Source: Amphiscolops sp. MND2022 (lineage: Eukaryota). From it: a stretch of 64,000 nt of DNA. Where the stretch lies: the NCBI GenBank assembly GCA_964187785.1, contig OZ076409.1, positions 32,180,001 to 32,244,000 on the forward strand, written 5' to 3'. Numbering within the stretch: the first letter of the stretch is position 1; each line of letters starts with the position of its first letter. Under the pieces are notes generated by a model. That model was given only the letters and a program-made list of their open reading frames with translations. It was not told where the DNA came from and did no database searches. Of the stretch, positions 1-55,999 are shown piece by piece. Both the position numbers and the translations under genes were made by a program.

Positions 1-215
1 TATTGCTCGAAAGTGATTTTCTTCTTCTTTATTTGCGTGACGTTGTAGAGTACCTTTAAGAAAGCAATGAGGCATTTTGGCGTAATTTTGTTTTTGTGAA
101 TTTCAAGCGAGAGTTTGAAGGCCATGGTATGAAATATGGCGGCTTTAAGACTATGCACTTTCGAAAATTCAGAAGTCATTGTTAGAATGTCGTTTGTTTC
201 AGCATTTGGGGCCAT
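1..215 (-). CDS. Accessory ORF Z of the retroelement (partial, runs off the window; MAPNAETNDILTMTSEFSKVHSLKAAIFH...)
   Basis: Hand translation: ATG at 215-213, 71 codons without a stop to the window edge. Same strand and composition as the element. Confidence 0.55.
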   Translation of the reverse strand, partial: MAPNAETNDILTMTSEFSKVHSLKAAIFHTMAFKLSLEIHKNKITPKCLIAFLKVLYNVTQIKKKKITFEQ

Positions 216-624
216 TATGACGAGAGTTTGAAGAATACAAAGAAGGAGAAGTTGGGATGTTCTGAAAGAATTTGGATGAAGGAGAAGGAAGAATGGATGT
301 TTCTAAAACAAAGGAAGTGTAAGAAGAATGACAATATCAAGTCAAAGATGTACAACAAAAATGAGTGCTATAATGTACCATATGTAGTGTTATTTTATAT
401 TGTCTTGTATGTCTTGTATTGTAGTGTTTTGAGTTAAAAATTAGTTAGTTTTTGACATGTACTGTAGGAAAAATTAGTGTATTTAAAAACAGTCCTGAGA
501 TTTCATTCAAAAGTAAGGATTTTCGTTAATTAAAAAAGAAAATACCTTGTAAAATGTGCCACAGATGTACCATAGGATGTACCAGAGAAGAAAATTTAAA
601 ACTTTATATTACCTGTAGAGAAGT

Positions 625-1968
625 TTAATGAAGATTAGTTGAATTAAAAAGAGTAGTTATAGTTTCCAAAGCAGATTGAATTGCTTGGGATGATTGAGTG
701 ATGCGTTGAGAATCTAAATCGAGTGTCTGAAGGAGTTTATGTTTTCTGTCATAGCAGTGTAGTATATGTGTGAGTGTTGTGATAGGTGTTTCAGAAGAGT
801 TTCGTTTATAGGGTTCCAGTAAATTTGTCATGTCTCGAAGTGTGCGATTGTTTAATACAGAGGAAAGTTTGTCATGAGTGTTTTTGATAGGTGAAGTGTG
901 TGATTTATGTTCGGTTTTTTGTTCAGCTTGTACCATGAAAGAGATAGTTTTGGCAGATATAAAGAGGAGTTCATTGTAGGAATATGTTTGTTTGTAGAGT
1001 GCTGTATAGTATGTTCTATCTTTATCGTCAAGTGGAGAAGAAACGAGGTGTTTAATAACAGTAAGAGGTTTTGTAATTTGAGTAGGGATGTTGCAAGGCA
1101 ACAAAAAATCATCGTAATGTATGAGATATTCTTGAGGTACAATAAGTGGACGTGAAGTATTGTTATATGGAAGCAAACAGAAGTATTGCTTTATAGGGTC
1201 ATAATTCCGGAGGTAGCCTGTGATACAGGAGTGATGGAGAGTGTACATATTTGTCATTGTGAACGGTGATGTATATTTGTAATTGACAAAAATATAATTT
1301 TGTGGTTTCGTGTATTGTAGAAATTTAGTATATGTCTGATGATGAGAAGCTTTTTGTGCTATAGAGAGAAAGGATGGATCAGATTCATCCGTTTTGAGAT
1401 CGTATATAGAAGGTCTAAGAAAATTGAACTGGAGAGAGAAAATTTTAACTCCATTCTCGAGCCAATATTGGTATGGACCCATGATTTTGGAAGCAATGGA
1501 TGTGAAGAAGTCTTGATTTTTGTCATATAAGCGAAATGAGTAGTCAGTAGGATGCATATATAGAGAAGTGAGTTGTGCTTTGAAGACGAAATCGTCAGTG
1601 GAAAGGATTGAGATCAAATGATCATCGCGATTCGTGCAAAGTGAAATTTTTGAAGGTATTGAAGGAGGATATATCGGTGATGAAAGAAAGATTGGATCTT
1701 TCATTATTTCATATCGCTTTTTTGGACGAGGAGGTGTCGATTGTGTATGATCAGTATCATCTTGTGGAGGAGTAGGTTTTGGATTTTCATTTTCAACTTT
1801 TGTGTGTTCCATTGGTTCAAGAAAAGTTGGAGGTGTTTTGTCAAAAGTATCAATATAGAGAACAGGAGAATCATTAGAAAGAGGTCTTGTTATAAGATCT
1901 GTTGGAGTTGCTTGTTCAAGCTGTGTTTGTAGGTCAATTTGTGCTTGTGTCATTGTTTGAGAAAGCAT
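625..1968 (-). CDS. Accessory ORF Y, ~447 aa, unknown function
   Basis: Long intact ORF downstream of env; ATG at 1968. P/T-rich N-terminus with a basic PRPKKR motif, Tyr/Phe-rich globular middle, helical-looking C-terminus. Confidence 0.75.
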   Translation of the reverse strand: MLSQTMTQAQIDLQTQLEQATPTDLITRPLSNDSPVLYIDTFDKTPPTFLEPMEHTKVENENPKPTPPQDDTDHTQSTPPRPKKRYEIMKDPIFLSSPIYPPSIPSKISLCTNRDDHLISILSTDDFVFKAQLTSLYMHPTDYSFRLYDKNQDFFTSIASKIMGPYQYWLENGVKIFSLQFNFLRPSIYDLKTDESDPSFLSIAQKASHHQTYTKFLQYTKPQNYIFVNYKYTSPFTMTNMYTLHHSCITGYLRNYDPIKQYFCLLPYNNTSRPLIVPQEYLIHYDDFLLPCNIPTQITKPLTVIKHLVSSPLDDKDRTYYTALYKQTYSYNELLFISAKTISFMVQAEQKTEHKSHTSPIKNTHDKLSSVLNNRTLRDMTNLLEPYKRNSSETPITTLTHILHCYDRKHKLLQTLDLDSQRITQSSQAIQSALETITTLFNSTNLH

Positions 1969-2217
1969 CAACAGTCACAGTGTTATCTATTCCAAGAGGC
2001 CTTAGCACTTTAAAGTTAAAGTACTATAAATTACACTAACGAGTGGATTTGTCAACTTTAGTTGAAGAGTTTTTGAAGATGGTTATTATGAGAGAAGTAT
2101 TATTAGATTGAGGAAGATGAATTTCTGCAAGAGTTTCAAGTGGTGAAGGAGTAGCAATTGTGAAGAAATAGCAGGCGAGCGTTCTGGAAGAGAGTTACAG
2201 AAGAACTGAGAGAGAGT

Positions 2218-4923
2218 TCAAGAAGATGGAGCGGGGAAAGGATAGTTTATTCGTGAATAGATTTTAATTGGTGTATCCGTAGTAGAAGTGACAGAATTGT
2301 TAATTAAAGTGTCATGTTGAGTAGTTAGATTGTCATTTGGGTGAAAGTTTTTATGAGTATAATTAGGAAGTGGGGGATGTTGGACAGAAGAGAAAGGAAG
2401 TGGAGTCGTTTTATGGTGAGAATTGTGGTGTCGTTTCGGAAAGAAGTTAAATTTAGGAAATTGAATTTTGTTAGATCGTTTAGTATAAAAAGGTGGAGGG
2501 GAAGTAACATCTGTAGAATGGTTAATTAAATTGGGAGAAGTGTCAATAAAGTTATCTAAAGATTTGGATTTGGAAAGTGTACTTTTGGGTTTTTTGTTTT
2601 GAGCTTCATGTAGGTCACTGACCATTCGTGCTGTAAGAACATTAAAAAAACCATGTGCAATAGAACTAAGTAAAGTAATATTATTTTTAAGATTATATTT
2701 AATGGATATTGTTTTGTAAAGTTTAACAATAAGTGTGAGAGTAGCTTGTGCAAAAAGAAAGGTAGAAAAGTATATGCCACATTGTGTAAGAATGTAACAA
2801 GGGTATCCAAAAAGTGCAATAAAAGCATCAGAGAACCATGTAGGTGTAAAAAGAGGAGTTAAGTTCAAGAGTTTATCATGTAATCCTATCCGTAATGTAT
2901 TGTAAGGATTACCAGAGTTTTGAGGGGAATCTGCATCGTAGTTTGGAGTATTAGATGAAATGAATGAATAACTAAGAGCTTTACCTAGTAATTGGAGTGT
3001 AGAATCAGAGTGTTTAGAAAATAAAATACGGTTCCAAAATTGATCAAGTTCTGCATTTGAATATATACCAGCATCTTGGGCTGTAAAAGTATTAGGGCGT
3101 ATTGTAGTTTTGATTTGTGAGGGTGTAAACATTAGTGGAGGTTTACGTTTGATAGGTTCAGGTCCAAGAATGTAGAAGTCTTGATCATCTGAATCAGGGT
3201 CTAGTTCAATAATGTTACGTGGATTAATATCGCATGTAATTGGTGTAGCATAATCATAAGTTTGTCTTGTAATAGGATCAACGTACATTAAGGTATCTTT
3301 AAAATGTATGGGTATACGGTCAAAACATCTATCTGCTTTGTATAAAGGAGATAAAAAATGAGGACAGTCATAAAGCCAGGCGGTTGAGCCTTCAACGTAT
3401 AAGAAGTTACTTCTATTACCAGTTAAAAGGAAACCAGCAAGTTGAGGATTTTGTACTGACATTGCGAGTATTGTAAGGAGTTGATTTCGTTCTAGTTCAC
3501 ATATTGTATGAAGAGTATTTAGTTCTTGTACTGTCATTGATCGAAAAACATGATTAATAGTGTAGTCAATTTTGGTGTTTATATGTGCATCATAATCAAT
3601 GGTAGCGAAATTGTTTGATACATTTAATGCAGGGAATACAAATTTGTTATTTGAAGTGTCTAATACTATTTTACCAGAGATATACTCATCAATTATGGAA
3701 TGAGGATTAGGTTGTCCTGTATGCATATTAAAACCATCAGTGTATGTAACAAAAAGGTCTGAGTATTGTGTAGAATAGAGATGGTCTGGTTTACCACAAA
3801 AGGTTTGTGCTGTAGGAAAAACTTCAAATCTTGAAAGACTTGGGTTATTTGGATGTTGTGTATGAGGAGCATGAACATAAGGGTGTTCTGTACCTTTTAT
3901 GCCAGAAGCAGTTTGAGATTTTACTGGATGTGGAGAATGTACAAAAGAGTCTGTTTCAATCCAATATCTATCTTCGATTTTAGTCATACGTCCAATAAAG
4001 TCTTGTAGGGTAAAAATTAGACAATAATCATCATTAAACCAAACAAGAGTGAAAGGAGTTTTTGTAGTGGGTTTACAAAAGCCATCTGCAAAATAGCAGG
4101 GTAATGTATGTCCATCAATTATCATGTCATTTGATGTGTCATCATATGTAAGTTCTATTTCGGAAATTTCTAGTCGCCAACTAACTAAGTTGACTTCGAA
4201 TTGATGATGAGCAGGACAATTATGATAAGGGTTTTTTGTAGGGTCATATATCCAGTTTTTATCAGCAGGCATGAATGTAAATGTACCTGTATACATTTTG
4301 TTCAATTGATATACAGTGAAAGGAGTTTGATATTGTTCTAAACGTTCTTGAAAGTAATGATCTTCTAAGAGTGTAAATGTTTTGTTGTAGTTAAGGTTGT
4401 TCAATATTTTATCATTTGTACCATTTAAATGTCTTATAATGTTTTTACATTCTACCGGATCAAGAGTAACAGGAAGTGGTAATGTATTATGATTCCATAC
4501 GGTTCTATCAACACGACGGTATTTGACAGATCCTTGAAAGCATATTTTCCTCTCTTTCTTTGCATAAGCAACACATTTGAAAGCTTTGATACGTTTAGCT
4601 TTTGCGCGGACATATACACGGGCTTTAACACTTGCATGTTTAATGTCAGAAGGAGCTTCAGTGCATTGTTTTACATTAAGTAGATTAAATTGTCTGAGAT
4701 TGTGTTGTTTTGCACAGTCATAATGAGAAACCATGAGATTTGTAATATTCGGGTCATCCGATGGAAGATAGTTTTCTGTATCAGGGTGTACTATAGCTAT
4801 AGAAAAGGTAGAGTTAAAGAAGTGTAAAAGAATTATAATTGTTATATAAAAAGTTGCGTAGGATTTAAAAGGATGTCTTATATTTGAGACCAGAGTATGG
4901 GTTACAAAAGACAATGTTGCCAT
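2218..4923 (-). CDS. env: Envelope glycoprotein, ~900 aa, chuvirus-G / class III fusogen-like
   Basis: N-terminal hydrophobic signal (FYITIIILLHFFNSTFS); Cys-rich ectodomain with many N-x-S/T sites; motifs SHYDC..LLNVKQC, HTICELERNQL..NPQLAGFLL, C..RCFDRIPI..YVDPITR..PITC; membrane segment at ~2717-2825; long cytoplasmic tail. First ATG at 4923. Confidence 0.85.
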   Translation of the reverse strand: MATLSFVTHTLVSNIRHPFKSYATFYITIIILLHFFNSTFSIAIVHPDTENYLPSDDPNITNLMVSHYDCAKQHNLRQFNLLNVKQCTEAPSDIKHASVKARVYVRAKAKRIKAFKCVAYAKKERKICFQGSVKYRRVDRTVWNHNTLPLPVTLDPVECKNIIRHLNGTNDKILNNLNYNKTFTLLEDHYFQERLEQYQTPFTVYQLNKMYTGTFTFMPADKNWIYDPTKNPYHNCPAHHQFEVNLVSWRLEISEIELTYDDTSNDMIIDGHTLPCYFADGFCKPTTKTPFTLVWFNDDYCLIFTLQDFIGRMTKIEDRYWIETDSFVHSPHPVKSQTASGIKGTEHPYVHAPHTQHPNNPSLSRFEVFPTAQTFCGKPDHLYSTQYSDLFVTYTDGFNMHTGQPNPHSIIDEYISGKIVLDTSNNKFVFPALNVSNNFATIDYDAHINTKIDYTINHVFRSMTVQELNTLHTICELERNQLLTILAMSVQNPQLAGFLLTGNRSNFLYVEGSTAWLYDCPHFLSPLYKADRCFDRIPIHFKDTLMYVDPITRQTYDYATPITCDINPRNIIELDPDSDDQDFYILGPEPIKRKPPLMFTPSQIKTTIRPNTFTAQDAGIYSNAELDQFWNRILFSKHSDSTLQLLGKALSYSFISSNTPNYDADSPQNSGNPYNTLRIGLHDKLLNLTPLFTPTWFSDAFIALFGYPCYILTQCGIYFSTFLFAQATLTLIVKLYKTISIKYNLKNNITLLSSIAHGFFNVLTARMVSDLHEAQNKKPKSTLSKSKSLDNFIDTSPNLINHSTDVTSPPPFYTKRSNKIQFPKFNFFPKRHHNSHHKTTPLPFSSVQHPPLPNYTHKNFHPNDNLTTQHDTLINNSVTSTTDTPIKIYSRINYPFPAPSS

Positions 4924-6118
4924 ATGTGATAGTGGGTATATTAAGATCGCGTTCAAATTCAATATGTACTACTTCAAAAGGAGCAGGAGAGGTTTTATGT
5001 TCTATTTTAGAAACGTGAAATATTGGGTGAGGATTTAATCCTTGAAATTTGACTTTGACTTCAAATTTAAGTTCTAAATTTGGTGTCTGAAGACGTTTTA
5101 GTTCTGTTTCTTTACGTTTATGAGATAAGAGATCGTTGTTATTAATAAAACGTTCTGCAAGAATTGGAAATCGAGGATCGTTTTGTGGGTCGTAGATAGT
5201 TATACCATCGACTCGAAGTGGATAATCAGCAAAATTTGGGGTTGGAGGTCTAGAATGTTCTGCAGTATAGTATTCAGGTAGTCTAATATGTGCAGGAACA
5301 GGAGTAGGAATTACTACTTGTGAAAAAAGATCGCCTGATAGGAATGCAGTTTGTGGATTAGATGAGAGTAATGAAGCGGTTTCAAAACCAGAAGTAAAAT
5401 AAGGAGATTGAAAGAGTTCTGAAGATGATGGGTCAGAGGACAATGGTTGAGCGTGTTGTCTTACAAGTCGTAATGCAGAATTGCTAGAAAGAGCGGAAAA
5501 ATTGAGTGTGGAAGTGTCTGTACTAAGTCTACGTGAAGGAAGGTCACGGAGATTATATCTATGTCTAGGTACAAAAAATGAGCTTGTGTCTTGTGATGGA
5601 GCGTAGTCAGAAGTATTATTGTCTAAGAGATTTGAGAGTGATGTAGAGGGCTTTCGAAGAGGTTTTAATGGTGGATAAAGTTTTGAAGAAGTAGTGCTAA
5701 GTTCTGTAGTGCTAAGTTCTGAAGGTAATTTTAGTGGAGGTAGTTTCGTATATTCAGTATCAGGAATTTGTACTAGATTAAGTTGAGGTTGGAGTCTAAC
5801 AGTTTTGATAGCTGTAGGGTGTTTGTATGTTACGTATTGTTCAACACTTTCAGGGTTTGGTATGTGTATAATAGGAGTGTTAATAGGAGTTTGTTGGGGA
5901 CGAGTGTTTATAGGAATTTCGGTTATAGGTGGTCTGTGAAGAAGTGAAGAAGAGGTTTCAGAAATGTATGATCTGGGTCTTTTAGAAGGAGTAGTAGGAG
6001 TTACATTACTAGAGTTTGTGGTGCTTGATACGGAAGATTCAGGTGTAGAAGGAATACTTGGAGCTGATGGAGAGATATCAGAGGGAGGATCCAGGATTGT
6101 TGAAGTGTTTTCAACAGG
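4865..6118 (-). CDS. ORF X, 417 sense codons with no ATG; P/S/T-rich N-half, globular C-terminus; overlaps the env start
   Basis: The listed 4865..5443 ORF stays open upstream to a TAA at 6119-6121 (hand translation). Contains PSAP, LYPPL and RYNLR motifs. Confidence 0.65.
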   Translation of the reverse strand, partial: PVENTSTILDPPSDISPSAPSIPSTPESSVSSTTNSSNVTPTTPSKRPRSYISETSSSLLHRPPITEIPINTRPQQTPINTPIIHIPNPESVEQYVTYKHPTAIKTVRLQPQLNLVQIPDTEYTKLPPLKLPSELSTTELSTTSSKLYPPLKPLRKPSTSLSNLLDNNTSDYAPSQDTSSFFVPRHRYNLRDLPSRRLSTDTSTLNFSALSSNSALRLVRQHAQPLSSDPSSSELFQSPYFTSGFETASLLSSNPQTAFLSGDLFSQVVIPTPVPAHIRLPEYYTAEHSRPPTPNFADYPLRVDGITIYDPQNDPRFPILAERFINNNDLLSHKRKETELKRLQTPNLELKFEVKVKFQGLNPHPIFHVSKIEHKTSPAPFEVVHIEFERDLNIPTITYGNIVFCNPYSGLKYKTSF

Positions 6119-6219
6119 TTATCTTGAAGATAACTTGTTATGAGTTTTATTTTATTTATTCAACATTCGTTCAACCAGAGTGACTAGGTTTGAGTAAGCT
6201 AACAGAGAGAATGACCAGA

Positions 6220-9200
6220 TTACAGTTGGGAAGGTGTAATAAAAAGTCTATAATCTAATTTGGGTTGTTGTCGCAGTTTATAAGTGGTTTTTGTGGTTCT
6301 GTCAATTAGAGGAGGAAGTGAAGTTGTTTGGTTGTTAGAAGGGTGTCTCGATCTGTCACTAGGGACATTAGTGTGAGGGGTATTAATTATATGTTTATAT
6401 AGGGAGTTGTCATTGGTTGAGGAAGGTAAAGACTTGTCATTGGATGTTATAGATGGTGTATTTTGATTGGATGTAGTAAATGATGGTGGTGTCATAAATG
6501 TTTGAGAATCTTCTTCAGACAAAGATTCATCAGAGTTAAACGGGGAAGAATCACTGTTTGCATATCTGGTAATTTGTGGAATTTGGTTTTGAGTTGTGTC
6601 TGAAAAGCGCATAAAATTACGCAAATGTGGATATAAGAGTGGTTCTTTAGGGTAATATGGGATTAAATGATTTCTATGAACGTGTACTATAGAGCCATCT
6701 TCTGCAAGTAATGCATATGTGACGTCTGATAGTCTGTCAAGAATTTTATATGGTCCAATCCGAAGGGGTTTGAGTTTGTCTGAAAAGTGAACATGTGTAA
6801 AATTGCGTTTTAAAACAAAGGTACCAATGGGAAGGGGTTTACCTTCGTGGTAAGTTTTTGTAATGTATGCGTGTGAGTTAATTTTTCGTAGAGTGTTTTC
6901 GTAGACTGTGGAGTAAATTTGTAACATAGCAGTTTCTACAGCGAGAAACCATTGTGGAATGGGTTTTGAGAGTGTTTTATAGAAGAATGGGTTTAAGTCT
7001 GATTTATCATAGTGAGAGTGTTCAGGGAGTTGAGAGCAATAACGTGAAATACATGTTTTGGAGGTATCTCGATTAAGGTTTAAATCAAATGTGAGGGGTA
7101 TTCTGGGTCTAGTATGGAAAACAATTTCATGAGGTGAAACATTGAGTTCTGAAAGTGGTTGTGAATTATGTGCATAAGCGTACATATGGACTTGAAATGC
7201 CCAATCTTTAGGTGTGTCATGTAGGAACATTCGAAGATGAGTACCAAGATTTCTGTTTTCTACTTCAACAAGGCCATTTGTCCAAGGAGAATAAGCTGTT
7301 CTAGGAGAATGACGAATTCCCATAAGTGTACAAAGGTGTGCCATTTCTTTGTTAACATATTCTGATCCACGATCAGTGACAAGGTATATGGGTGGTCCAA
7401 ATTTAATAATCCAATGGTGTAGGAGAGTTTTGATAGCAGTCTTTGCGTTGTTTGATTTGATGGGTACTGTAACAACAAAGTGACTAAAAGCGTCAATTAT
7501 TACGTGTATATAGGATTTGTTATGAGAAGGAGGATTAATAGGTCCTTTAGTGTCCATTGAGATTCTATAGTTGAAAGATGGAGCATGTTCTGAAAATGAT
7601 TGTGTAGGAGCAGTTTGAATTTTCATATTGAAGTGTTTATTACGTTGACATTCAATACAGTCATGTATGAAAATGGAAAGCCATTTTTCAAGGAATGGGA
7701 TATAGTAATATTGTTTGAATGTTTTGTAGGTGATTTTCATACCAGTGTGAGAATGTTCATGAAGTTTGTTAAAGACAGTTTTAAATAGTCGAAAAGGTAG
7801 GCATATGCGAATAGTATCTTATACAAAATTTGGAGTAGAGGATTGGTTATTAACAGTGGGGTTTGTAATGTACAGACTAATAAGATTAGTGGATTCATCA
7901 ATGAAAAGTTGTGAAAATCTTTTGTAATATACATGTAGAAATGGAGTACCAGTGATAAGAGGTGTTATAAATTCGGGTTTTTCATTGTTCAGTAACCAAG
8001 AATAAACAGTTCTGAGAACCGGATCTTGAGATTGTTGTTGTTGAAGAGTTTTTATGTCTAATGAGTAATCATCGGGGAGGAAGAAACCTTGAAAATAGTT
8101 TTTGTACTTAATGAAAGATGTATCATAAAAGGGTATAATTTGTTGACAGTGTGTGAGAGATGGGAAATGTGGTTGTACATTTATTGCAGAAATTGATTTC
8201 TGTGATGTGTTGTGACTTGGTTGTTTAAGAGTAGAATAATTTTCTGTTTGTAATGTAGTATCTTGTGAGAAAGAAGAGTCAGATTTTGGAATTCTTGTGT
8301 AAATATGATCTTCGTCATCGCTTGTAACGTCAGTATCATTAAGTAAGAGAGATTGTTGATGAAGGGTTTTGTTGTTCTTTTTTGTAGGTGTCCTAAATTT
8401 GGTTTGAAAAGGAGTTACAGATTTGAATGAGAAAGATTGTAAGGGTTTTACAATAATGTCATTTCCTTTATCATTGATACGAATAGAGAATTGATCTGTA
8501 CCATAATCAGCAAGAATTGGATGAGAGTCATGTTTTTGATGGGGTAAAATTTCTTCATGTTTTATTAAGTAATGTACAGGTTTAAGAGTGTTATCTTGTA
8601 AAAGTGCAAAATCGATTTGTGGTGGAAGGTGTTTATGTTTTAATTGGTTGAGTTGTAATTCAGCTTTTGTGAATGAGCGACTCAACATATCGGCAACAGA
8701 AAGATTTTTTCCAGGGGTGTGAATTATTTTGAGTTTTGAAAATTTTGTCAATTGCATTTGAGCTCTATAGAAACGAGGGCTGAGATTACCTTTCTTTGTA
8801 AAACAATGTAATAAAGGTTTGTGATCAGTGAAAATGTGTATTGGATGTGGAGAACCTATGATAAGAAATTCATAGATTTGAAGTGCGTGTACTATACCAA
8901 GGAGTTCTCTATCAAGTGTGGAGAGTTTTTGTTCTTGTGGGCTAAGTATACGAGAGTTGTACGATATGACTTTCATTTTGTTCTGTTCATTTAACTGGAA
9001 TGAGACAGCGCCTAATCCAATAAGGGAAGCGTCAACAGTAATGAAAAATGGATGTTTTGTATTCGGTATTGTTAATTCTGTTTCAGAAGTGAGAGACATT
9101 TTAAGTTTTTGGAATAGACTTTCGTGTTCATCTGTCCATTTCCAAGGAGTGTTTTCATGTAAAAGATCGTAAAACGGTTTGAGGTTAATATGTAGTTTTT

Positions 9201-12200
9201 CAATAAATTTAGTGTAAAAATTGAGTGCGCCAATGAAACTCATGAGGGCAACTTTGCCAGTTGGAGAAGGGATTTTATGAATAGCTGCAATTTTTGAATG
9301 AATTGGTTTAATTTTATTGTAACCAATTTCATGTCCAAGGAATTTGACTTTGAGGAGCATGAAAAAGGATTTTTCAGGGGCTAGTTTAAGATTATTTTTT
9401 GTACTGATAATGTGTAATTGTTCTATGAGTTGAAACATATGTTCTTTAGAGTCGGATAAAAGTAATATATCGTCAATGTAGACAAGAGCGAAACCTTGTT
9501 CTATAAGAGTTTTAAAGAAAGTAGACATTTGTTTTGTAAAGAAATTTGGTAGTCCTTTGAGACCATAAAAGCCTCGTATGAAAGCGAAAAGTTTGTCTCC
9601 TGAAGAGAAGCTAGTAAGTTTTATAGTATCTTCGTCAAGAGGTGTATGCGCATAGGCATACATAAGGTCAATAGCAGATTTGTACTTTTTGTTTGCGCGT
9701 GCTAGTTGTGGAGCAAGAGGTTCAATAGGCCAAGATTCATCAGATTGTTCTGTATTGGAATTAAGATGTCGAGCGTCTAATACACATTCTATTGTATCTC
9801 CCTTGGGGATTATAATAAGAGGATTTAAATAAGTTGTGCCATAAACAGGTTTGTCTTGAGGAGAAGAACCAATTTGTTCAATAATGTTATATTTTTCAAG
9901 TTCTTTGAGAAGTGCATTTAATTTGTCTCGATAATGAATAGGGACTTTGGAAGGACGTTGTGTCATAAGTTGAGAATTTGGTTTAAGTCGGATACGAAAG
10001 GGTGTTGAAATGTTTCCAACATCGTTTTTGTGAGTTGCATAACATGTTTTATATTTGAGGAGCATATTGCAAAGAGTAATGTATTCTGAATCTGTAAGGT
10101 CGGAAAATTGAAAGTTAAATTTGTTAATAAATTTCAGATTTTCAGAAGTATATGGAAGAGAAGGGAAAATGCGTTTTTCTGATGTATGAGAAGTAGGTTG
10201 AACGTTGTATAGGGAAGAAGTTTGGTGTGGAATGTTGTCATTTGTCATATAAATTTGATGTAAGGAGAATTGTGGAGGAGGGGTTGTAGGATCATCATAT
10301 TGTACAATATAATTGGTTTGTGGAAGTGGTTCGGTAATATCAGGATGATAAGTATGAGTAACATTATGTATTAAAGTATTAATGTCGTTAACTTGGAAGA
10401 ATTTAGGTCTTTCATTAGTAATTGGAACTTCGATGTAGCCAATATGTCCTGTAGGTAGCGTTGCAATATGTTTTGAAGTGTTTTGAATAATAGTTGCACA
10501 TATGTCTGGCTTGTCGTCTGTAAAAACTTCAATAAAATTGAAAGTTGTACGGAATTTGGTAGCAAAATAAGTATGAGGTACTGAAGGAAAAAAGTGGTTT
10601 TGTGGTGTAGTTGTAAAATGAAGATTATGATAATTTTTGATCGGAAAGTGTGCAATTTTTGAAGATTTGGGTTTTAAACGTATTTGAGTTTTTGAGTTGA
10701 TTCTATAAATGTACGAGAAGTATGGATAATCTTTAGATAGAAGTGTTGTAAATTTTGCATAATTTGGGTGTGTTTTTGATTGGTATTTAAATTCGAGTGT
10801 AAAGTCTTGTATGTTTATGTTTTGTATATTGTCTTCGAAGAATGGTGTACCAAGGATATTGTATTTAATATCAGCTACTGCGAAGGGTACTGAAAAGTAT
10901 CGAGAGTTTTCGTCAATAGTGGTGTTCAGAATGATATTTGCATAATGTAAAATAGGAACTTCAGTTTGGTTTGCAACAGTTAGTGTTTTGGAATTTCTAG
11001 TTGGTCCAACATCAGAGGTGTGATTTGGTCTGATATCGAGAAGTTTTGTAAGAGTTATGTATGTTGGGTAATTGAGTACAGAAATGGAAGCACCGCTATC
11101 TAGGAGGAATGCAATTTCTAGTCTAGATGGGTTGTCTCTTTGTACTATACTTGATGGGGTGTGTACATATAGAGTATAAAACCAACTTGTAGGCGTGACA
11201 GCATTTGCCATTGCTGTTGGGTGATACATGTGTACTTCAAATTTGATAGGATCAGTTTGTTCCTGTTGTTGTATTATATTGATTTTATTTCTGGAATTGG
11301 AATGTGATCTGGAGCTAGAAAATCGAGAGTTTCGTGGTCTAGAAGGTGGTCTATATGAATTGGTGTATTTGTTAAATTTGTCATCTCTTGAATAAGAGCG
11401 TGATCTGTATCTAGGACGAGAAGTTTGTCTATATTGAGATCTATAAGGAGATCTGTAAGGAGAACGGTAAGATCGAGAATCACGTTTATATGCGTCATAT
11501 CTTGATCTGGAGTAATGTGGAGGAGTAGTACTTTTATCATAACGAAATCGGTCTCTATCTCGAGATGTAGAACGGTATCGATCTTGTGAATATTTTTGGT
11601 TATAGGAGTTGTCTCGTGAAGTACTTCGACTTCGATATCGATTATCATAGTGTTTTGTTTTGTCATTTGAAGGGGAACGAAAGTCCTGAACGAATGATTT
11701 TTGTGGAGATTTTGATCTAGCATATGCTTCTCGTTTATCTTGATCATCTCGTTGTTTTTTGAAACAAGCAGAAATGGAGTGGTTTGTTCTATGACAGTAT
11801 GAACAATATTTTTTATATGCAGGTTTATTTTTGTTATTTGGGTCTTTGGGTTGTGTATACATAAGTTGTTCTTGAGATGAGTGATCTAAGGTTTGAGTGT
11901 TCAATTGTTTTGTAATATTGTTTATTTCAAGTGCAAGATCATGTGTTCTAATTTTGTCGTTTGCAATATCTTCAGCGTCAACAAGTTTTACCAAGGTATG
12001 AAAAGGAATCGAAGGTTCTAGAACAGTAGAGGTGTGTTTTACTTGTCTTTTGTTTGCAAAATCTTTAAGATTCTTTGGAAGTCCTTTTGTGAAGATTTCA
12101 TTACATTTAAGGTTAATAGTGGATGCATTCTCATTGCACCAGCCTTTTTCAACCAGTTGTTGAACTTTGAGTGCAAAATGACGTACTGTTTCATTATCTT

Positions 12201-14415
12201 TCTTTGTTAAGTTAAGGGCTTCAACTTGAGCATAATAAGCGTTCTTTTGTGAAGAAAATTGTTTTTTGAAAGCTTGTACAAAAGCGTGCCAATCATGTTT
12301 ATAAGTGTCGTTTAAACGGATGTACCAGCTTAGTGCTGTACCTGTTAAAGAGCATTGTATGAAAGCCATGCGGCGAGCGTGCCAAAATTTATATTCATGT
12401 TCTGAGGTAGGTTGTAAACCTAAAGAGAATGTAACACGTGCCTCAATATGTTGTAAATTTTCTTCAGGTGTATAGTTGTGATCGAGTCCATCAAAAGGTT
12501 TAATAGGTTCTGATATAGAAGTAGAAGAGTTAATATATGTTGGATGTGACATAGTGTTATGAGACATAGTAGATGGAGGTGTTGTATTATACGTAGGATG
12601 GTTTGAAATATTAGTTGAAGATATAGTTGAAGTATTAGGAAAGTGAGGGTTAGTTCTAATTGTTGTTGAAGGAGGATTTGATATTTGAAAGTGAGAGGTT
12701 TGTAATGTAGGAGGGATTGTATTGGATGTATGCTGGGAAGAAAGAGTGTTTAATTGGTTGTGTGTGTTATAATTTATTTGAGATTGTTGGGTATGACTTG
12801 GATTGGTACTGGTAAGATTGTATGATAATGGGTCAGTTAATATAGGTTGTAATGGAGGTCGAGACAGATGTCTGGCTGTAGTATAGTTAGAGGGCGGGTT
12901 AGAATGAATTGTGTTAATATTTAAAGTAGGTTGTGTAGTTTGTACTGGGTTAGTTTGAGCTGGAGTATAAGTAGAAGTTTGTATTTCAGAAGATGAAGGT
13001 GGAGTTGGTGTCTGGAAAAGTACTGTATTATTGTTCTGTGTAATAGGGTGTGTATTTGATGAGCTTGGTTGAGGAGAGACATGAGTATTTATTTGAGCTG
13101 AGAATTGAGGAGGAATAGAAGGTGGATCATAATTTCGAGGAGATAGTATTTGTGTTTGAGAGGGTTGTGTAATATTAGTATTATATTGGGACAAAACAGA
13201 AGTATTGTCGGTGATGACATTTGAAGGGTTGTCTTGATTTTGATTTGTAGTCCTTTGGGTGATATTGTGAGTAGGAATTGCTATAAGATTGGAGTCCTCA
13301 GTTATTGTAAAACTTTGTGGATTTTGTACTGTTTCATCAGAAAGTTCTGATGTATTGGGAAGTGTAGGTATTTCAGACGGGTTTGGTTGTCGCGTATCAG
13401 AGATTTGTGATTGTGGTGGCTGTGGTGATTGTTCTTGAGGAGAATCAGGATTGTGAAAAAGATGAACAAGTGTTTCTTGTGTTATAGATTCTTGTTCTGA
13501 TTGTTCTGATTGTTGTCTTATATATGGAGGTTCAACATTAAAAGTTCGTGTTTGAAGAGTTGGTTGATGTAAAGTATCAGATGTAATATCAGGTCTACTG
13601 TCTGACGTTTCAGAATGTTCAAGTACAAAGTTGTGATCTAGGTTTATTTGTTCAAAATGTGTAGCATTTAATGAAGTAAGATCTATGTAATGTAAATGTT
13701 TGTTTTTATTGTCTATAATGTATGGTAAGAGTTCTATATCTGTTAATGCTTTTGGGAAGTTAGTATAAGCGTTTTGGTCTTTTTGTTCCCAAAGTAATTG
13801 GTAGTTAAATCTAAAGAATTTTAATAAGAAATGTGTAAAAATTTTGACTTGAGGTATAGTGTCATCTGTAAGGGTGATTTTTGTAAAGAATTTAAACTCG
13901 AAATTCTTTACTTGTAATATATCTCGTTGTAGCCAATAATGAGGGTTACCATGTCTTTGAACTTTTGTGTCAAGATCAGGGACCTCGAAATATTCAGATA
14001 AGTGTTTGAGTTCTTGTAAATGAGAAGGACGATAAGGTGGTATGTCTTGGTGTTCATTGAATTCAATGAGTTTTTGTATTTATGTGCGAAAAACATCTTG
14101 TATAGAAAGTGTAATATTCTGTGGGTGTATAGTTCTATAAAACGTTCCAGAGTTTATTCCTTTAACAGGGTTAAAAATAACTTGGAAAGGAGTTTGTGAA
14201 GGTGTTATGTCAAGTGTTTTATATTGGATATAATATAAGTAGGAATCACAATGTTCTCGTATTAATGGAATAGTGTGTAATATATGGGGTTCTGTTTCAA
14301 ATGGAAGTGGGTTAGTGTACTGAAAGATAATATTTTGGAGAAAAGGTGTTACATATTGTATAAGAGATCGATTTTGTCTTTTATCATTAGAGACTGTAAA
14401 GGGAGTGGGGAGCAT
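6220..14415 (-). CDS. gag-pol: Gag-Pol polyprotein frame (~2731 codons) interrupted by two in-frame TAA codons (14080-14082, 7819-7821)
   Basis: ORFs 14080..14415, 7819..13194 and 6220..7740 share one frame and the gaps between them are stop-free. Motifs: CSYCHRTNHSISAC knuckle; LLDSGAS protease; YIDD RT; RNase H VDAS/RELLG/FTDHKPL/VADMLSR; integrase HEHSH..CIEC, MDTKGP/TDRG/GLVE and GPY. Confidence 0.93.
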
Positions 14416-14424
14416 TATATGATA

Positions 14425-14664
14425 TTAGATTTGATTAGTACAATAGGATTGCCATAAAGGATAGATGTATCGGAAAAGAAGATATTTTGTATTAAATTGT
14501 GAATTATATGGTAAAATTTGATCTATGAAAATAACTTGTAGGAAAATAGTAAGTACAATACTTATGAAAAGAAGAAGTGGGTTTTGTATATATTGAATAA
14601 GTTTTTTGAAAGTGTGGTATATATTAAGTAGTCCAAAAAGAGGTAGTATTATACTTGTTAACAT
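14425..14664 (-). CDS. Possible upstream small hydrophobic ORF (79 aa)
   Basis: ATG start; stop 9 nt before the gag ATG; hydrophobic segment LLLFISIVLTIFLQVIFI. Confidence 0.35.
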   Translation of the reverse strand: MLTSIILPLFGLLNIYHTFKKLIQYIQNPLLLFISIVLTIFLQVIFIDQILPYNSQFNTKYLLFRYIYPLWQSYCTNQI

Positions 14665-15128
14665 AGAAGGAAAAGGTTGTACTTTAAAATTTTGGTATGA
14701 ATGAAATTAAAAATTTGTCTAAAAAAAGTGCAAGACCGGCAACGATAGCAACAAAGAACCAAAAGCAGACAATGAGTTTGACTACAATGTCTACTGAAGG
14801 CGGCATGTACAATAAAGTTCTATAAAAGTGTGTCAAAAAGTTATACAAAATTTTTGTTGTATATAGGTGTATGAAAAATGAAAGTAATGTAAAGAGAGGT
14901 GTGATATATGTGTTATATATCTGAATTGTTATATATTTGGATCCGTAAGAGAGTTTTAAAGAAGTTTTGTATGTAGTTTGTAGTATAGAAGAGAGAATAA
15001 GAAAAGTATTATAATGATGTTATGGAAAAAGATGTGTTATATAGGTGTGCCAACTTTAAAGTTGATCCAAGCGGCTAGAACCAAAGAGATTTTTACTAGC
15101 AGGAATCGCTGGATAGCACTGTAGAAGG

Positions 15129-15310
15129 GCCAACACGTATCGCACGTCTGCGGTTGGAACGAAAGAAAGAGAGAAGAAGAAAGCCAACACGAATTCACTC
15201 AGAGGTGGTTGGAACGAAAAAGTTAACTGACAGGAATTACGTGAAGAAACGTAGTCAGAACCAAAAAGTATGACTGACAGGAATTACGGTGATGAACGCA
15301 GTCAGAACCA
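15129..15310 (-). repeat. Two pairs of duplicated hairpin-forming motifs in the 5' leader
   Basis: gccaacacg...ggttggaacgaaa occurs twice (stem ccaac/gttgg); actgacaggaattacg...agtcagaacca occurs twice (stem ctgac/gtcag). Confidence 0.6.
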
Positions 15311-15487
15311 TAGCAACACGGATCAATTTCAAGTAGAAATTGGTTGCAACGTTGAAGTTAATAACGGTATGCAATGTTGAGAGGTGGAGAGACTGTGTGT
15401 CGAACAAAGAGATATCGAATGAGAAAGTTGAGGAAAGGTGTACAACGATTGTAGATGTGTGAAATAAATGGGAGAGAAAGAAGAATT

Positions 15488-15502
15488 TTCGTGGTCGCAC
15501 CA
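15488..15502 (-). promoter_or_regulatory. Putative primer binding site (tRNA-Arg-like)
   Basis: TGGTGCGACCACGAA, 2 nt after the ...AACAGCTCA end. Resembles the complement of animal tRNA-Arg(UCG) 3' ends (TGGCGACCACGAA) with 2 extra nt. Confidence 0.55.
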
Positions 15503-15504
15503 AT

Positions 15505-15983
15505 TGAGCTGTTAAAAAGTTTGGTGGTTGTTTCTTTTATACAAGTTAGAACTGACATAAGAAGTCTAAGATTTTAACAGCGGAGTCGTCTTATCTTTTA
15601 TCTTATAGCTAGCTAGTTCAGAGTACGATCTATTTCTGAGATCTCAGTTCTTGAAGTGTTGGAAGAAGACTGATTGCTAGGAAGATTTCTCAATTTCTCC
15701 AAGTAGATATATTCTATTAACTAGGGTAGGTTACATCAATTAATAATGTGACAGCAACAGGATAAAGCAGGGAAGTTTGATACAGGATCTATTAAATGAA
15801 GTTTCTTCTAGAATAATTGGTTTCTAGATTCAATTAGATTTACTAATTTCTTCGGTTAAGAGTTCAGAGTATTTCAGATTTATAAAATCTTTGAGGACAT
15901 GCATCATGGCATCACAGAGGTGATAAGAACTCTGACTCATACAGGTATAAGAAAGTTTCTTCAGAATGAGATATTGTTCTACA
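15505..15983 (-). repeat. Putative 5' LTR (~480 bp; outer end uncertain, 15983 or 15987)
   Basis: Minus strand reads TGTAGAAC...CAGCTCA directly before the PBS, and the strand skew ends here. The partner LTR is not in the window. Confidence 0.5.
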
Positions 15984-43691: not shown

Positions 43692-44016
43692 TGTAAATTG
43701 TGTATATTTCCCTTTGGAAATTCAATGTATATTTCCCTGTGGAAATTCTCTCTGAATTCAATCTGATTCAAACGAGGTTTTTAACAGAAAGAGATTCAAT
43801 TAATGCTAGAAGAACGGAATAATCAGAGTTGAAATGTGGGAACTACCTAATCTGAATGGTTGAAAACAAAACCAATGAGTTTTACCGCACAAAGGTGTGA
43901 ACAAAAATCAAACTTCATACGTGAAACAATATCATTAGTTGCATGAACAGCATGGCAACGTGTCAGATAAACATGCCCAGAATAAAATTGAACTAAACGA
44001 AATTTTGGCGTTAACA
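43692..44016 (-). repeat. Bel/Pao 3' LTR
   Basis: Direct repeat of 48468-48792 with about 4 substitutions. Confidence 0.97.
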
Positions 44017-44259
44017 TACTCCGCCCCTTGGACTATCAGTTCAATATAAATGGGTCTCAATATATATATGGTCTTTCAGAGTGTGAAAATGCGATCAACC
44101 AGATCACAAGCTGTGCGTCCGAGTGGCGATGACGCCTTGCGTGAGCTCTTCACAGAGGTGGAGAAGGGGGCGGTAAAGAGCAAGCGCGTGTCAAGGGTGG
44201 CCGGACCATCGGAGATCGTCGTCGGCGAGCCCTGCGTGGTGTCCTCATCTGTGGTGACG

Positions 44260-46424: not shown

Positions 46425-46532
46425 AGCAGCAGGGAGTTCTTACAGCTCCCAGAAGCGAGAGAGCTGGGCGTCTGTAGAAACGTGATGAGATCTCACTTGA
46501 CTCGAAGGAATCTTCGTTTGACCTGTCACTAC

Positions 46533-48383: not shown

Positions 48384-48467
48384 CTTGAAAGGAATGTCAA
48401 GTAATGTCACAGAGGACGAATTGATCTTCTTTTCCGGTTTCTGTATCCCGGGTGGTCGCGGCACCAA

Positions 48468-48792
48468 TGTAAATTGTGTATATTTCCCTTTGGAAATTCA
48501 ATGTATATTTCCTTGTGGAAATTCTCTCTGAATTCAATCTGATTCAAACGAGGTTTTTAACAGAAAGAGATTCAATTAATGCTAGAAGAACGGAATAATC
48601 AGAGTTGAAATGTGGGAACTAGCTAATCTGAATGGTTGAAAACAAAACCAATGAGTTTTACCGCACAAAGGTGTGAACAAAAATCAAACTTCATACGTGA
48701 AACAATATGATTAGTTGCATGAACAGCATGGCAACGTGTCAGATAAACATGCCTAGAATAAAATTGAACTAAACGAAATTTTGGCGTTAACA
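48468..48792 (-). repeat. Bel/Pao 5' LTR
   Basis: Direct repeat of 43692-44016; followed by the PBS. Confidence 0.97.
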
Positions 48793-54145: not shown

Positions 54146-54268
54146 AAGACAATACATTAAAAAAAAACATTTTTCCACGAAGACGAATCATGGCTAGACG
54201 AATGCCGAAAAATCGTATATATTCAATCGCATGAGTATATATTCAACAGTTCAACTTTGTTCAATAAC

Positions 54269-54340
54269 GTCCCTATGGCACAGTGGTCAACACTTTGGCC
54301 GTGCAATCGGGAGGCTGCAGGTTCGAATCTCTCTGGGGTT
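54269..54340 (+). repeat. tRNA-like SINE head (copy at 60982-61053)
   Basis: A box TGGCACAGTGG and B box GGTTCGAATC at tRNA spacing; acceptor, anticodon and T stems are poor. Confidence 0.55.
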
Positions 54341-55472: not shown

Positions 55473-55557
55473 TACATTTTTAACAATAAAGCACAATATT
55501 TAGAATTCATGTACCAGTCAATCGACACAAAAGACACGAGATTATGTAATTTGGAAT

Positions 55558-55906: not shown

Positions 55907-55999
55907 ATTTGGAATTATGTAACTGCACGCTTATTGGCTAACAAATATGTTGTATGCATTGGCAAAACACATTGTTCAATTAAGTCTACACAACAAATA

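Follow-up and report, generated by a model that had tools for sequence, protein, structure and literature searches.

A probable 18-kb Ty3/gypsy-type endogenous retrovirus-like element with a predicted class III envelope protein and three further genes behind pol

The left end of the window (the whole stretch of 64,000 nucleotides that was analysed) very probably belongs to one lightly damaged Ty3/gypsy-type (Metaviridae-like) endogenous retrovirus-like element of 18.07 kb, presumably from an invertebrate host. The element encodes Gag-Pol in one frame, followed by ORF X, an envelope gene (env) and the ORFs Y and Z. The family is very young and very abundant, and the copy in the window is slightly damaged. 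Its features are listed below with positions of the window; negative positions lie to the left of it.

-2155 to 15916, minus strand: whole Ty3/gypsy-type element, 18,072 bp, far end outside the window
15505 to 15916, minus strand: 5′ LTR, 412 bp, TG...CA termini on the element strand (blastn and sequence reading)
15483 to 15502, minus strand: primer-binding site, starting with TGG, 2 nt past the LTR (sequence reading)
14416 to 15504, minus strand: leader, 1,089 nt, U5-adjacent untranslated region, contains an upstream ORF
14425 to 14664, minus strand: upstream ORF, 79 codons, hydrophobic, in the gag-pol frame, ends 9 nt before the gag-pol ATG
6220 to 14415, minus strand: gag-pol, 2,731 codons in a single frame, ATG at 14415, two TAA in the window copy
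12567 to 14415, minus strand: N-terminal extension of Gag-Pol, 616 codons, P/S/T/Q/N-rich
12145 to 12363, minus strand: capsid-like domain of Gag, matching Pfam Retrotrans_gag with 34.1 bits (cut-off 24.1, E 3.3e-08)
11764 to 11805, minus strand: CCHC zinc knuckle CX2CX4HX4C (read from the translation)
11634 to 11284, minus strand: Arg/Ser-rich stretch after the CCHC knuckle
11074 to 11106, minus strand: aspartic protease active-site motif DSG (read from the translation)
8740 to 9699, minus strand: reverse transcriptase and RNase H (Pfam RVT_1 6.2e-13, RT_RNaseH_2 2.8e-24)
6220 to 7818, minus strand: integrase with HHCC zinc finger, DDE core and SH3-like C-terminal part
4865 to 6118, minus strand: ORF X, open for 417 codons between two stops, shares 104 nt with the env frame
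2218 to 4923, minus strand: env, 901 aa, type I membrane glycoprotein (Pfam, Foldseek, VIA and hydropathy)
625 to 1968, minus strand: ORF Y, 447 aa, predicted soluble, behind env
1 to 215, minus strand: ORF Z, 150 aa, ATG at 215, first 72 codons inside the window and the remainder in locus L011
-2155 to -1744: 3′ LTR, corresponding to positions 7845-8256 of locus L011, outside the window

An earlier note on this DNA had described a unit of more than 16 kb on one strand. The unit was borne out on the minus strand, but the end given for it, 15983, was wrong: the true end is at 15916, and positions 15917-15983 are flank, starting with the target duplication GAGG. Leftward extension, which the note had recommended, revealed both the 412-bp 3′ LTR and the second GAGG, so that the window copy is enclosed by a 4-bp target duplication. 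The two LTRs, aligned by blastn after this extension, differ at two of 412 positions and are separated by an internal region of 17.2 kb. Direct LTRs with TG...CA termini and a short target duplication, a hallmark of Ty3/gypsy elements, are therefore present in this copy. No second LTR pair was found inside the element; the direct repeats of the window are all located elsewhere. A purine-rich tract directly before the 3′ LTR was not seen in the last bases. The GC skew of the plus strand is approximately +0.4 across positions 1-16000 and approximately 0 from 16001 onward, and the depletion of G is uniform along the whole element.

The family is represented by many near-identical copies. With the LTR plus leader as query, 40 of the 44 scored matches were near full-length at 98-100% identity (4,034 first-look candidates), and the Y gene yielded 40 full-length matches among 40 scored, likewise at 98-100% identity (2,894 candidates). 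Clustering at 98% identity places 1,758 proteins together with env. Ten other copies were fetched for comparison; they are the best-scoring matches to the 5′ end, a non-random sample, and together with the window copy they make up the 11 copies compared here. All ten are 17.8-18.2 kb long and identical in layout, with LTR pairs that are 99.5-100% identical (fully identical in five), and nine are flanked by a 4-bp target duplication. Among the observations that, according to the earlier note, would speak against its reading were copies without X, env, Y and Z or with the 3′ LTR right after pol; instead the block was kept in 10/10. A separate env frame thus lies behind pol within the LTRs and occurs in many copies at more than 98% identity. 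Recent activity, also proposed in the note, is supported by the near or full identity of the LTR pairs, the target duplications and the thousands of candidate copies. The window copy itself is not intact, since gag-pol contains two nonsense codons. Every frame intact was found in 0/11 copies, and a functional source copy is for this reason an assumption. One of the sampled copies is nested within another copy of the same family.

The LTR, primer-binding site, leader of about 1.1 kb and upstream ORF described before are all present in the 5′ part of the element; the LTR has 412 bp, the primer-binding site begins with TGG and the upstream ORF has 79 codons. The 12-nt tRNA 3′ end with CCA that is the reverse complement of the start of the primer-binding site is absent from the primer-binding site table in the available part of Chary and Hayashi (eLife 2026, PMC13524379), and a guessed tRNA pattern for the primer gave 0 matches in the genome. 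The upstream ORF contains one hydrophobic segment; its ATG is found in 10/11 copies and its stop codon in all 11. Variants shared between copies number N,S = 4,7 in this ORF, which is too few to decide on selection.

The two in-frame TAA codons of gag-pol are located at 14080-14082 and 7819-7821. Each is a stop in only one of the 11 aligned copies, the window copy, and since both are confined to it the family has one giant gag-pol frame. The single frame of approximately 2,731 codons that had been proposed is thus true of the family but interrupted in the window copy. Frameshifts, in agreement with the earlier note, are found in none of the frames gag-pol, X, env, Y and Z of this copy. The N-terminal extension of Gag-Pol has no Pfam match up to an E value of 10. 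In the reverse transcriptase the motif YIDD is found at 9480-9460. The best solved relative of the reverse transcriptase-RNase H part is Ty3 (4ol8_A, 1.4e-37), followed by foamy virus (1.3e-17) and HIV-1 (about 4e-04); among these solved relatives, the Ty3 match is better than the closest retroviral one by 20 orders of magnitude. The integrase matches Pfam Integrase_H2C2 (4.3e-09) and rve (1e-17), and its best solved relative is Ty3 Gag-Pol (7q5b_A, 3.5e-13). According to the Pfam and motif positions, the Pol domains follow each other along one frame in the order PR-RT-RH-IN, with the integrase last.

The glycoprotein frame of about 900 aa noticed earlier is open and encodes 901 aa (4923-2218). 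Residues 439-666 match Pfam PF24664, the Monjiviricetes fusion glycoprotein (8.3e-24, 83.9 bits, cut-off 27), a family that is also matched by the env of a second element family of this genome (see below) and by two distant relatives. In a Foldseek search with the env model, all 36 listed matches (of 56) with E values of at most 0.001 are class III fusogens; HSV-1 gB is the top match (5.8e-06, probability 0.99), and GP64 and the Gp of Bourbon virus, a thogotovirus, are among the others. VIA, in which all Z scores stayed below 8, pointed to HCMV gB (6.6) and rabies G (6.3). The model is of low confidence (mean pLDDT 44.5, TM-scores 0.08-0.18). Based on the agreement between Pfam and Foldseek, env is predicted to be a class III (gB/G/GP64-like) fusogen of a chuvirus-like sequence family. 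Hydrophobic segments are located near residues 25-47 (signal-like) and 715-733 (membrane anchor), and the ectodomain contains 14 cysteines and six sequons. The env ATG is kept in 11/11 copies. The frame is broken in three of the ten other copies, and one of the ten has a 354-nt in-frame deletion.

ORF X, reported before as lying in front of env, was found at 6118-4865 with 417 codons. Its N-terminal part is rich in S, T and P and its C-terminal domain is conserved; in the window copy X is without any ATG. The X frame lacks an in-frame ATG in 10/11 copies and in 4/4 copies of the second family. Counted over all frames, the X stretch contains two ATG compared with 10.8 expected (Poisson p 0.0014), and that of the second family contains one compared with 10 expected; gag-pol, env, Y and Z each exceed expectation by a factor of 1.5-1.8. 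In a subfamily of 80% identity, the M of a predicted X protein corresponds to TTG in the DNA. Going from X to env, the frame shifts by +1 in both families; the overlap measures 104 nt in the element described here and 20 nt in the other family. X has no Pfam match and 277 relatives, none of which is named.

ORF Y is present with the 447 aa reported (1968-625). It has no Pfam match below an E value of 0.07, a PDB profile search gave a single match at chance level (E 0.93) and the Atlas gave no usable match. The 277 relatives of Y are all without a name, and a search with a representative returned 580 unnamed proteins, most of them fragments. The AF2 model of Y (pLDDT 32.7) is unusable for a fold search. 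ORF Z indeed runs off the window edge, ending 237 nt to the left of it, and the whole protein has 150 aa. Z has no Pfam match, and its Atlas value of 0.84 to bacterial clusters is at chance level. The Z protein is 100% identical over 150 residues in four of the ten other copies and over 149 residues in a fifth, and two copies with unchanged Z differ at 9-12 nucleotides. No paralogy was detected among the proteins of the element.

Selection was assessed with shared variants, i.e., those present in at least two of the 11 copies, which were compared by Fisher test with singletons; in 11 copies sampled from thousands, the latter are not truly private mutations. Shared variants amount to N,S = 16,89 in gag-PR-RT-RH, 2,24 in IN, 2,16 in X, 12,35 in the whole env (3,24 in its ectodomain), 5,29 in Y and 0,16 in Z. 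All six regions are poorer in N than the singletons (Fisher p 0.032 to 2e-11). In the N-terminal extension of Gag-Pol the numbers are 26,35 for shared variants and 58,30 for singletons (Fisher p 0.007), and in Z2, a neighbouring frame, shared variants are 7,3. X, Y and Z, which had been proposed as accessory genes, thus behave as coding genes kept under purifying selection, with shared variants that are almost all synonymous, as in pol. The order X-env-Y is repeated in the second family of this genome. Its env is 54% identical; tblastn identified a homologue of X before env (35% identity, E 1e-36) and a homologue of Y behind env (43% identity, E 1e-62), which makes env the best conserved downstream gene between the families. 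No Z homologue is detectable in the second family, whose 5′ half and gene behind Y are covered in part; a different ORF is found at that place.

X, Y and Z could also be non-genic, that is, chance open frames in G-poor DNA or non-coding regulatory DNA, for instance an extended env leader. This would agree with the lack of any family, structure or Atlas match for the three, with the ATG-free stretch of X, which would suit a pure leader, and with the unfolded AF2 model of Y. It is nevertheless highly improbable, because the shared variants of all three are overwhelmingly synonymous compared with those of frame Z2, because X and Y are recovered in a family with an env of only 54% identity, and because the Z protein stays unchanged between copies that differ in their nucleotides. 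By our estimate, stop codons in the element are no rarer than in random DNA of this composition, which argues against chance frames. It is extremely improbable that X, env, Y and Z represent a foreign insertion, a nested second element or an assembly chimera. The whole unit sits within a single LTR pair and a single 4-bp duplication, order and length are equal in the ten other copies at different places, and the G depletion runs uniformly through an element without an internal second LTR pair; these observations outweigh the length, which is unusual for gypsy elements, and the fact that a sampled copy is itself nested in a family member.

Two further explanations concern single genes. Env might be a relic in a family that spreads only within cells, X, Y and Z acting in intracellular steps. 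The high copy number with many defective copies would fit a trans-complemented intracellular amplification, as would the broken and deleted env frames among the ten copies, but env is under the same constraint as pol along the lineages that replicate, and between the families it is the best conserved of the downstream genes; we regard a relic as improbable. Unlikely is also that X is part of another protein, either a C-terminal extension of Pol or the N-terminus of the Env precursor, joined by frameshifting or splicing. X has no ATG of its own and overlaps env with the same +1 shift in both families, and the predicted protein P0396, the sole member of its cluster, opens like an integrase C-terminus and runs into X. 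A Pol extension is opposed by the approximately 100 nt that separate the end of pol from the X frame, in which both frames are closed, and by two stops, that of pol and that preceding X, which are kept in 11/11 copies. Env, for its part, has its own ATG and its own signal-like segment, and a fusion of X and Env was not seen, since the longest of the 59 env relatives has 918 aa.

The element can be compared with several known systems. The Drosophila elements gypsy, ZAM and Idefix are 7-9 kb long, have gag and pol in separate frames and an F-type env (class I, baculovirus F-like), and are not known to carry X, Y or Z. Shared with them are the gypsy-type backbone and the env, and by analogy a spread from soma to germline or from cell to cell appears likely. 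As a functional analogy only, the element resembles the complex retroviruses (foamy viruses, HTLV and lentiviruses): several accessory genes flank env, the leader is long and the base composition is biased between the strands. Here, the best solved relatives of the reverse transcriptase-RNase H and the integrase are from Ty3, Gag-Pol is one frame, and no search related the accessory proteins to those of retroviruses.

The earlier note did not recognize a described family. This has to be restricted, since a gB-type env has been published for gypsy elements and extra ORFs for LTR elements; the X-env-Y-Z layout and its three proteins were not found in the literature, as far as it was available to us. 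Env-carrying Ty3/gypsy elements with a herpesvirus-gB-type ENV, “errantiviruses” in a wide sense, have been reported across Metazoa, as have chuvirus-like glycoprotein genes beside a gypsy POL in 114 arthropod elements (Chary and Hayashi, eLife 2026, PMC13524379). According to the accessible part of that study, its gB-type elements likewise encode GAG, POL and ENV in one orientation, flanked by LTRs, and have a gB-like env of class III and many copies at more than 98% identity. The element described here differs from them in its 18 kb, its 2,731-aa Gag-Pol, a pol-env gap of about 1.3 kb that holds a selected gene without ATG, and two selected genes behind env. As described in the same part, the pipeline dropped regions longer than 10 kb and POL-ENV gaps longer than 1 kb and did not search for further genes. 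Four short env peptide motifs had no match in the first 400 characters per entry of its sequence sheet. In mosquitoes, BEL/Pao elements have captured a Chuviridae-like glycoprotein (Dezordi et al., 2020, PMC7642597). Their env and the one described here fall into one Pfam family, that of the Monjiviricetes/chuvirus-type fusion glycoproteins, whereas the backbone here is Ty3/gypsy, and extra genes of the X, Y and Z type are not described in the sections of that paper at hand.

LTR elements can contain additional ORFs, either in the pol-env interval or downstream of env (Arkhipova and Yushenova, 2019, PMC6431247). In what could be consulted of this review, the planarian Burro exceeds 30 kb; its ORF1 comprises 4,873 aa, its env is of the F type and sits in frame with gag and pol, between the two, and domains related to apoptosis or ubiquitin are included among the Burro-type traits. 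Our element resembles Burro/GYPSM1 of planarians, Ogre and the foamy-like ERVs of fish, which have accessory ORFs, in being oversized, with extra coding capacity and thousands of copies. It differs from Burro in its 18.07 kb, its separate gB-type env behind pol and the lack of such Pfam domains, and is thus not of the Burro type; its 17.2-kb internal region is also below the 20 kb that mark a “giant” element in that review.

A possible life cycle would start with LTR-driven transcription, followed by tRNA-primed reverse transcription and insertion by the integrase. Gag-Pol would be made as a single polyprotein without frameshifting and processed by its own protease. Env might mediate fusion of particles or cells with neighbouring cells, by analogy with Drosophila gypsy; because env is conserved as strongly as pol, the element must use it. 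X, env, Y and Z would be expressed from subgenomic RNAs or internal promoters. On the sense strand, 0 strong splice-donor-like motifs (GTRAG behind five chosen dinucleotides) were found, and contigs of one sequencing run of unspecified type covered the element in patches, without joints. We propose that X and env share one mRNA, since X is without ATG and the approximately 1.2 kb up to the env ATG are nearly ATG-free in all frames. X would start at a non-AUG codon or borrow its start from an upstream exon, and ribosomes passing X would initiate at the env ATG by leaky scanning. Rice tungro bacilliform virus, a plant pararetrovirus, uses leaky scanning for polycistronic translation. It has a comparable AUG-poor stretch before a downstream cistron and a non-AUG upstream cistron, although for the element this would follow from ATG counts only. 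Y and Z may be soluble accessory proteins, with regulation, RNA export, assembly and host antagonism as candidate roles.

Accessory genes and regulated expression around env, i.e., retroviral complexity, are usually seen as a trait of vertebrate retroviruses. Tentatively, and as a possibility we would not put first, the lineage might be an independently evolved “complex retrovirus” outside Retroviridae: a currently spreading, enveloped gypsy-type virus of an invertebrate in which X, Y and Z have regulatory or host-directed functions and are expressed from subgenomic RNAs, env is reached by leaky scanning through an AUG-free X with a non-AUG start, and the G depletion reflects long-term strand-specific editing or a polymerase bias. 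The element is of the gypsy type with four selected genes behind pol, one of them predicted to be a captured fusogen of the RNA virus type. Its thousands of near-identical candidate copies could make up a few percent of the 1.07-Gb genome. Screens that are limited to 10 kb and to short pol-env gaps, as in the part of the pipeline description cited above, will miss such elements. The family would offer a tractable case for the gain and expression of extra retroelement genes, for their function and for the size limit of reverse-transcribed genomes.

The minus strand of the window carries a long series of open frames between positions 1 and 15916, with Pfam matches in the order typical of Ty3/gypsy elements (Retrotrans_gag, RVT_1, RT_RNaseH_2, Integrase_H2C2, rve). 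For the boundary search, 20 kb leftward of the window were added from the 1.07 Gb assembly. Two long terminal repeats (LTRs) were identified.

Long terminal repeats of the element. Negative positions lie left of the window.
Window 15505 to 15916, minus strand: 5′ LTR, 412 bases, recurring leftward
Window -2155 to -1744, minus strand: 3′ LTR, two mismatches to the 5′ LTR over 412 bases

The leftward extension proposed in the earlier note thus yielded both the 3′ LTR and the target duplication. The repeats have TG...CA termini on the element strand and are flanked on both sides by GAGG, and this pair gives the element a length of 18,072 bp. The end previously placed at 15983 overshoots by 67 bases, since the LTR and its GAGG flank set it at 15916. 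A primer-binding site begins with TGG two bases past the 5′ LTR; no matching tRNA was found in the table of PMC13524379 or with a guessed tRNA pattern in the genome. A purine-rich tract was not seen in the bases preceding the 3′ LTR. The non-coding stretch between the last frame, Z, and the 3′ LTR contains a 37-nt unit repeated 4.1 times (positions 9390-9540 of L011, the locus fetched left of the window; window -610 to -460). A 61-nt unit is repeated 1.9 times at L011 9183-9297, and length differences between copies lie around these repeats.

The element family is both very abundant and very young, although the window copy is defective. With the LTR plus leader as query, 40 of 44 scored matches (from 4,034 first-look candidates) were near full-length at 98-100% identity; with the Y gene, all 40 scored matches (from 2,894 candidates) were full-length at 98-100% identity. 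The 90% cluster of the env protein has 1,758 members. The finding is genuine and lies well beyond what chance would produce. Ten further copies were taken from the best LTR-plus-leader matches and are thus a non-random sample. All ten, 17.8-18.2 kb long, are colinear with the window copy over their whole length, both LTRs included, with in-frame gaps of 213 nt in the integrase (IN) of one copy and 354 nt in env of one copy. Copies without X, env, Y or Z, which would have refuted the reading of the earlier note, did not occur in this sample. Identity within LTR pairs is 99.5-100% (five of the ten pairs show no difference at all), and nine copies have a 4-bp duplication while the tenth adjoins another copy. 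Pairwise divergence between copies is 0.6-3.0% and subfamilies are apparent. One sampled copy is nested within another of the same family, and a different one adjoins the 3′ internal end of yet another copy and has no target duplication (loci L027/L028 and L029/L030). In a naive count over the ten copies, gag-protease-reverse transcriptase-RNase H (gag-PR-RT-RH), full-length IN and X are each open in five, full-length or near-full-length env and Y each in six, and Z in nine. Gag-pol is wholly open at full length in one of the ten, and none of the 11 copies, the window copy included, has every frame intact.

Gag-pol is a single frame of 2,731 codons running from the ATG at window position 14415 to the stop at 6220 (minus strand). 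The uninterrupted frame reported earlier holds for the family in the alignment of 11 copies but not for the window copy, in which TAA codons lie at 14080-14082 and 7819-7821. Each of these is a stop in the window copy only (one of 11 aligned copies), and therefore the Gag-Pol of the family is one giant frame while the window copy is defective. The protein opens with an extension of 616 codons that is rich in P, S, T, Q and N and has no family match in Pfam. Then come the capsid-like domain and CCHC knuckle, a stretch rich in Arg and Ser, the DSG protease motif, RT (YIDD) with RNase H and, past a long linker, an integrase with HHCC finger and DDE core. The nearest solved structure is that of Ty3 both for RT-RH (4ol8_A, 1.4e-37) and for the integrase (3.5e-13); further solved relatives of RT-RH are a pararetrovirus-type "enzymatic polyprotein" (8.5e-26), foamy virus (1.3e-17) and HIV-1 (approximately 4e-04). 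The Arg/Ser-rich stretch behind the Gag CCHC knuckle (window 11284-11634, minus strand) resembles the RS domains of splicing factors. A hydrophobic upstream ORF of 79 codons (window 14425-14664, minus strand) lies in the gag-pol frame and stops 9 nt ahead of the gag-pol ATG. Its ATG is present in ten and its stop in all 11 copies, and its shared variants comprise four non-synonymous and seven synonymous changes.

The 916-codon frame behind pol matches PF24664 (Monjiviricetes_fusion, "viral fusion glycoprotein") with an E-value of 8.3e-24. In the encoded env of 901 amino acids, a hydrophobic segment lies around residues 25-47 and a membrane anchor around 715-733, followed by a tail of about 165 residues; its ectodomain contains 14 cysteines and six N-glycosylation sequons. 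A sequence search against the PDB gave no match for env. Built with 22 sequences, the AlphaFold model reaches a mean pLDDT of 44.5, a poor value overall, with long beta-hairpins at residues ~95-330 and 365-410, where the pLDDT is 60-84. Foldseek returned 56 PDB matches with E ≤ 0.001, and every one of the 36 matches listed is a class III fusion protein. HSV-1 gB ranks highest (5.8e-06, probability 0.99), with TM-scores overall of just 0.08-0.18; others are gB of VZV, KSHV, MHV68, herpes B virus and PRV, baculovirus GP64 and Bourbon virus Gp. In a structure search independent of Foldseek, HCMV gB ranked top (Z 6.6, with 212 aligned residues) and the PH/fusion domains of rabies G reached Z 6.3, both amid coiled-coil noise from a long predicted helix in the env model. 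Taking Pfam and structure matches together, we accept env as a predicted class III fusogen of the chuvirus family.

The three additional frames, X (417 codons, between pol and env), Y (447 amino acids) and Z (150 amino acids, both behind env), have no relative in Pfam, PDB or Atlas, and no hydrophobic segment was found in any of them. In the alignment of 11 copies we separated variants present in at least two copies, which are inherited along replicating lineages, from singletons, and counted non-synonymous (N) and synonymous (S) changes for each frame.

Non-synonymous and synonymous changes (N,S) per frame.
N-extension: shared 26,35; singleton 58,30
gag-PR-RT-RH: shared 16,89; singleton 109,94
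IN: shared 2,24; singleton 34,12
X: shared 2,16; singleton 17,23
env: shared 12,35; singleton 53,33
env ectodomain: shared 3,24; singleton 29,28
Y: shared 5,29; singleton 28,25
Z: shared 0,16; singleton 9,11
Z2 (frame behind Z): shared 7,3; singleton 7,9

Fisher tests of shared against singleton changes gave p-values between 0.032 and 2e-11 in every frame but Z2. With shared N,S of 7,3 and a result outside this range, Z2 was dropped as a gene. A second element family of the same genome was used for comparison. Its env protein, P0035, shares 54% identity with env of the window family and has 50 scored matches at 90-99% identity to P0035, 24 of which are full-length at 98-99%. Four of four loci examined in this family carry a homologue of X immediately ahead of env (35% identity, E ~1e-36) and one of Y immediately behind env (43% identity, E ~1e-62). 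No Z homologue is detectable in this family, and the place of Z is taken by a different S/T-rich frame, open for at least 194 codons (2818-3400 of locus L037, minus-strand reading). Judged by two independent tests at the sequence level, the shared-variant counts and the second family, X, Y and Z are genes.

X is lacking an obvious start codon. An in-frame ATG is absent from X in ten of 11 copies and in four of four copies of the second family, and in an 80%-identical subfamily the predicted X protein opens with an "M" whose codon is TTG. Between the start of the X frame and the env ATG there are only two ATGs in any frame versus 10.8 expected from composition (p 0.0014); the same stretch of the second family has one versus ten expected. 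ATG counts are 1.5-1.8 times the expectation in each of gag-pol, env, Y and Z, and about as expected in the N-extension. The stop codons that close pol and X and the one preceding X, as well as the env ATG, are conserved in all 11 copies, as is an in-frame CTG with A at -3 and G at +4, which also occurs in the 80%-identical subfamily. The overlap of the X and env frames is 104 nt in the window family; in the second family it is 20 nt, and there the X stop lies one base ahead of the env ATG.

We infer, and favour, a scheme in which X and env would share one subgenomic RNA. X would be started on a codon other than AUG or from an exon further upstream, and scanning ribosomes that bypass X would initiate at the env ATG. 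A similar scheme is known from rice tungro bacilliform virus. A fused X-Env protein was not seen, since none of 59 env relatives is longer than 918 amino acids. One predicted protein (P0396, a cluster of one) opens with residues resembling an integrase C-terminus and continues into X; it may reflect a deletion in one copy or hint at a link between Pol and X in some subfamily.

The element also stands out by its base composition. GC skew of the plus strand is about +0.4 over window 1-16000 and about 0 from 16001, and the coding strand contains 34% A, 31% T, 24% C and 10% G. The second family is likewise depleted in G (8.8-8.9% at loci L033-L036); a BEL/Pao-type element elsewhere in the window has a skew near 0 and no such depletion. 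Among singletons on the sense strand, T>C changes number 27.7 and A>G 10.5 per 1,000 of the source base, C>T 39.9 and G>A 30.5. From these rates an equilibrium follows that nearly matches the C/T and G/A ratios observed; the bias thus seems to be upheld by a strand-specific process in replication rather than by decay after insertion. Polymerase bias and editing are candidate causes of the asymmetry.

The BEL/Pao-type element (window 43692-48767, minus strand; Pfam DUF1759, Peptidase_A17 and RVT_1) is flanked by direct repeats of at least 300 nt with 99% identity, spaced 4,776 nt from each other. A 615-bp unit is present in three exact tandem copies at window 51016-52545, and more diverged copies begin at 54970 and 61682. 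Positions 54177-57292 and 60890-63502 are duplicated blocks with 94-97% identity, ~6.2-6.7 kb apart; near them lies a reverse-transcriptase fragment (59431-60090).

Intact env-carrying Ty3/gypsy elements with F-type or HSV/gB-type env are described across Metazoa by Chary and Hayashi (PMC13524379), among them 114 arthropod gypsy elements with a chuvirus-like glycoprotein. Such a glycoprotein was first seen in mosquito BEL/Pao elements (PMC7642597). The element described here belongs to the env-bearing Ty3/gypsy kind with a gB-like env of the chuvirus family. As outlined in PMC13524379, the screen discarded regions >10 kb and POL-ENV gaps >1 kb and annotated GAG, POL and ENV alone; as so outlined, it would miss or truncate an 18-kb element of the present kind. 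LTR elements can hold ORFs in the pol-env interval or downstream of env according to Arkhipova and Yushenova (PMC6431247), who list Burro (>30 kb, in-frame F-type env), Ogre and foamy-like ERVs of fish (17 kb) among large elements. No description of the present layout or of the X, Y and Z proteins was found in the open-access literature. New here are the size of 18 kb, the single-frame Gag-Pol of 2,731 amino acids and the extreme depletion of G, together with an ATG-less gene under selection before env and two selected orphan genes behind it.
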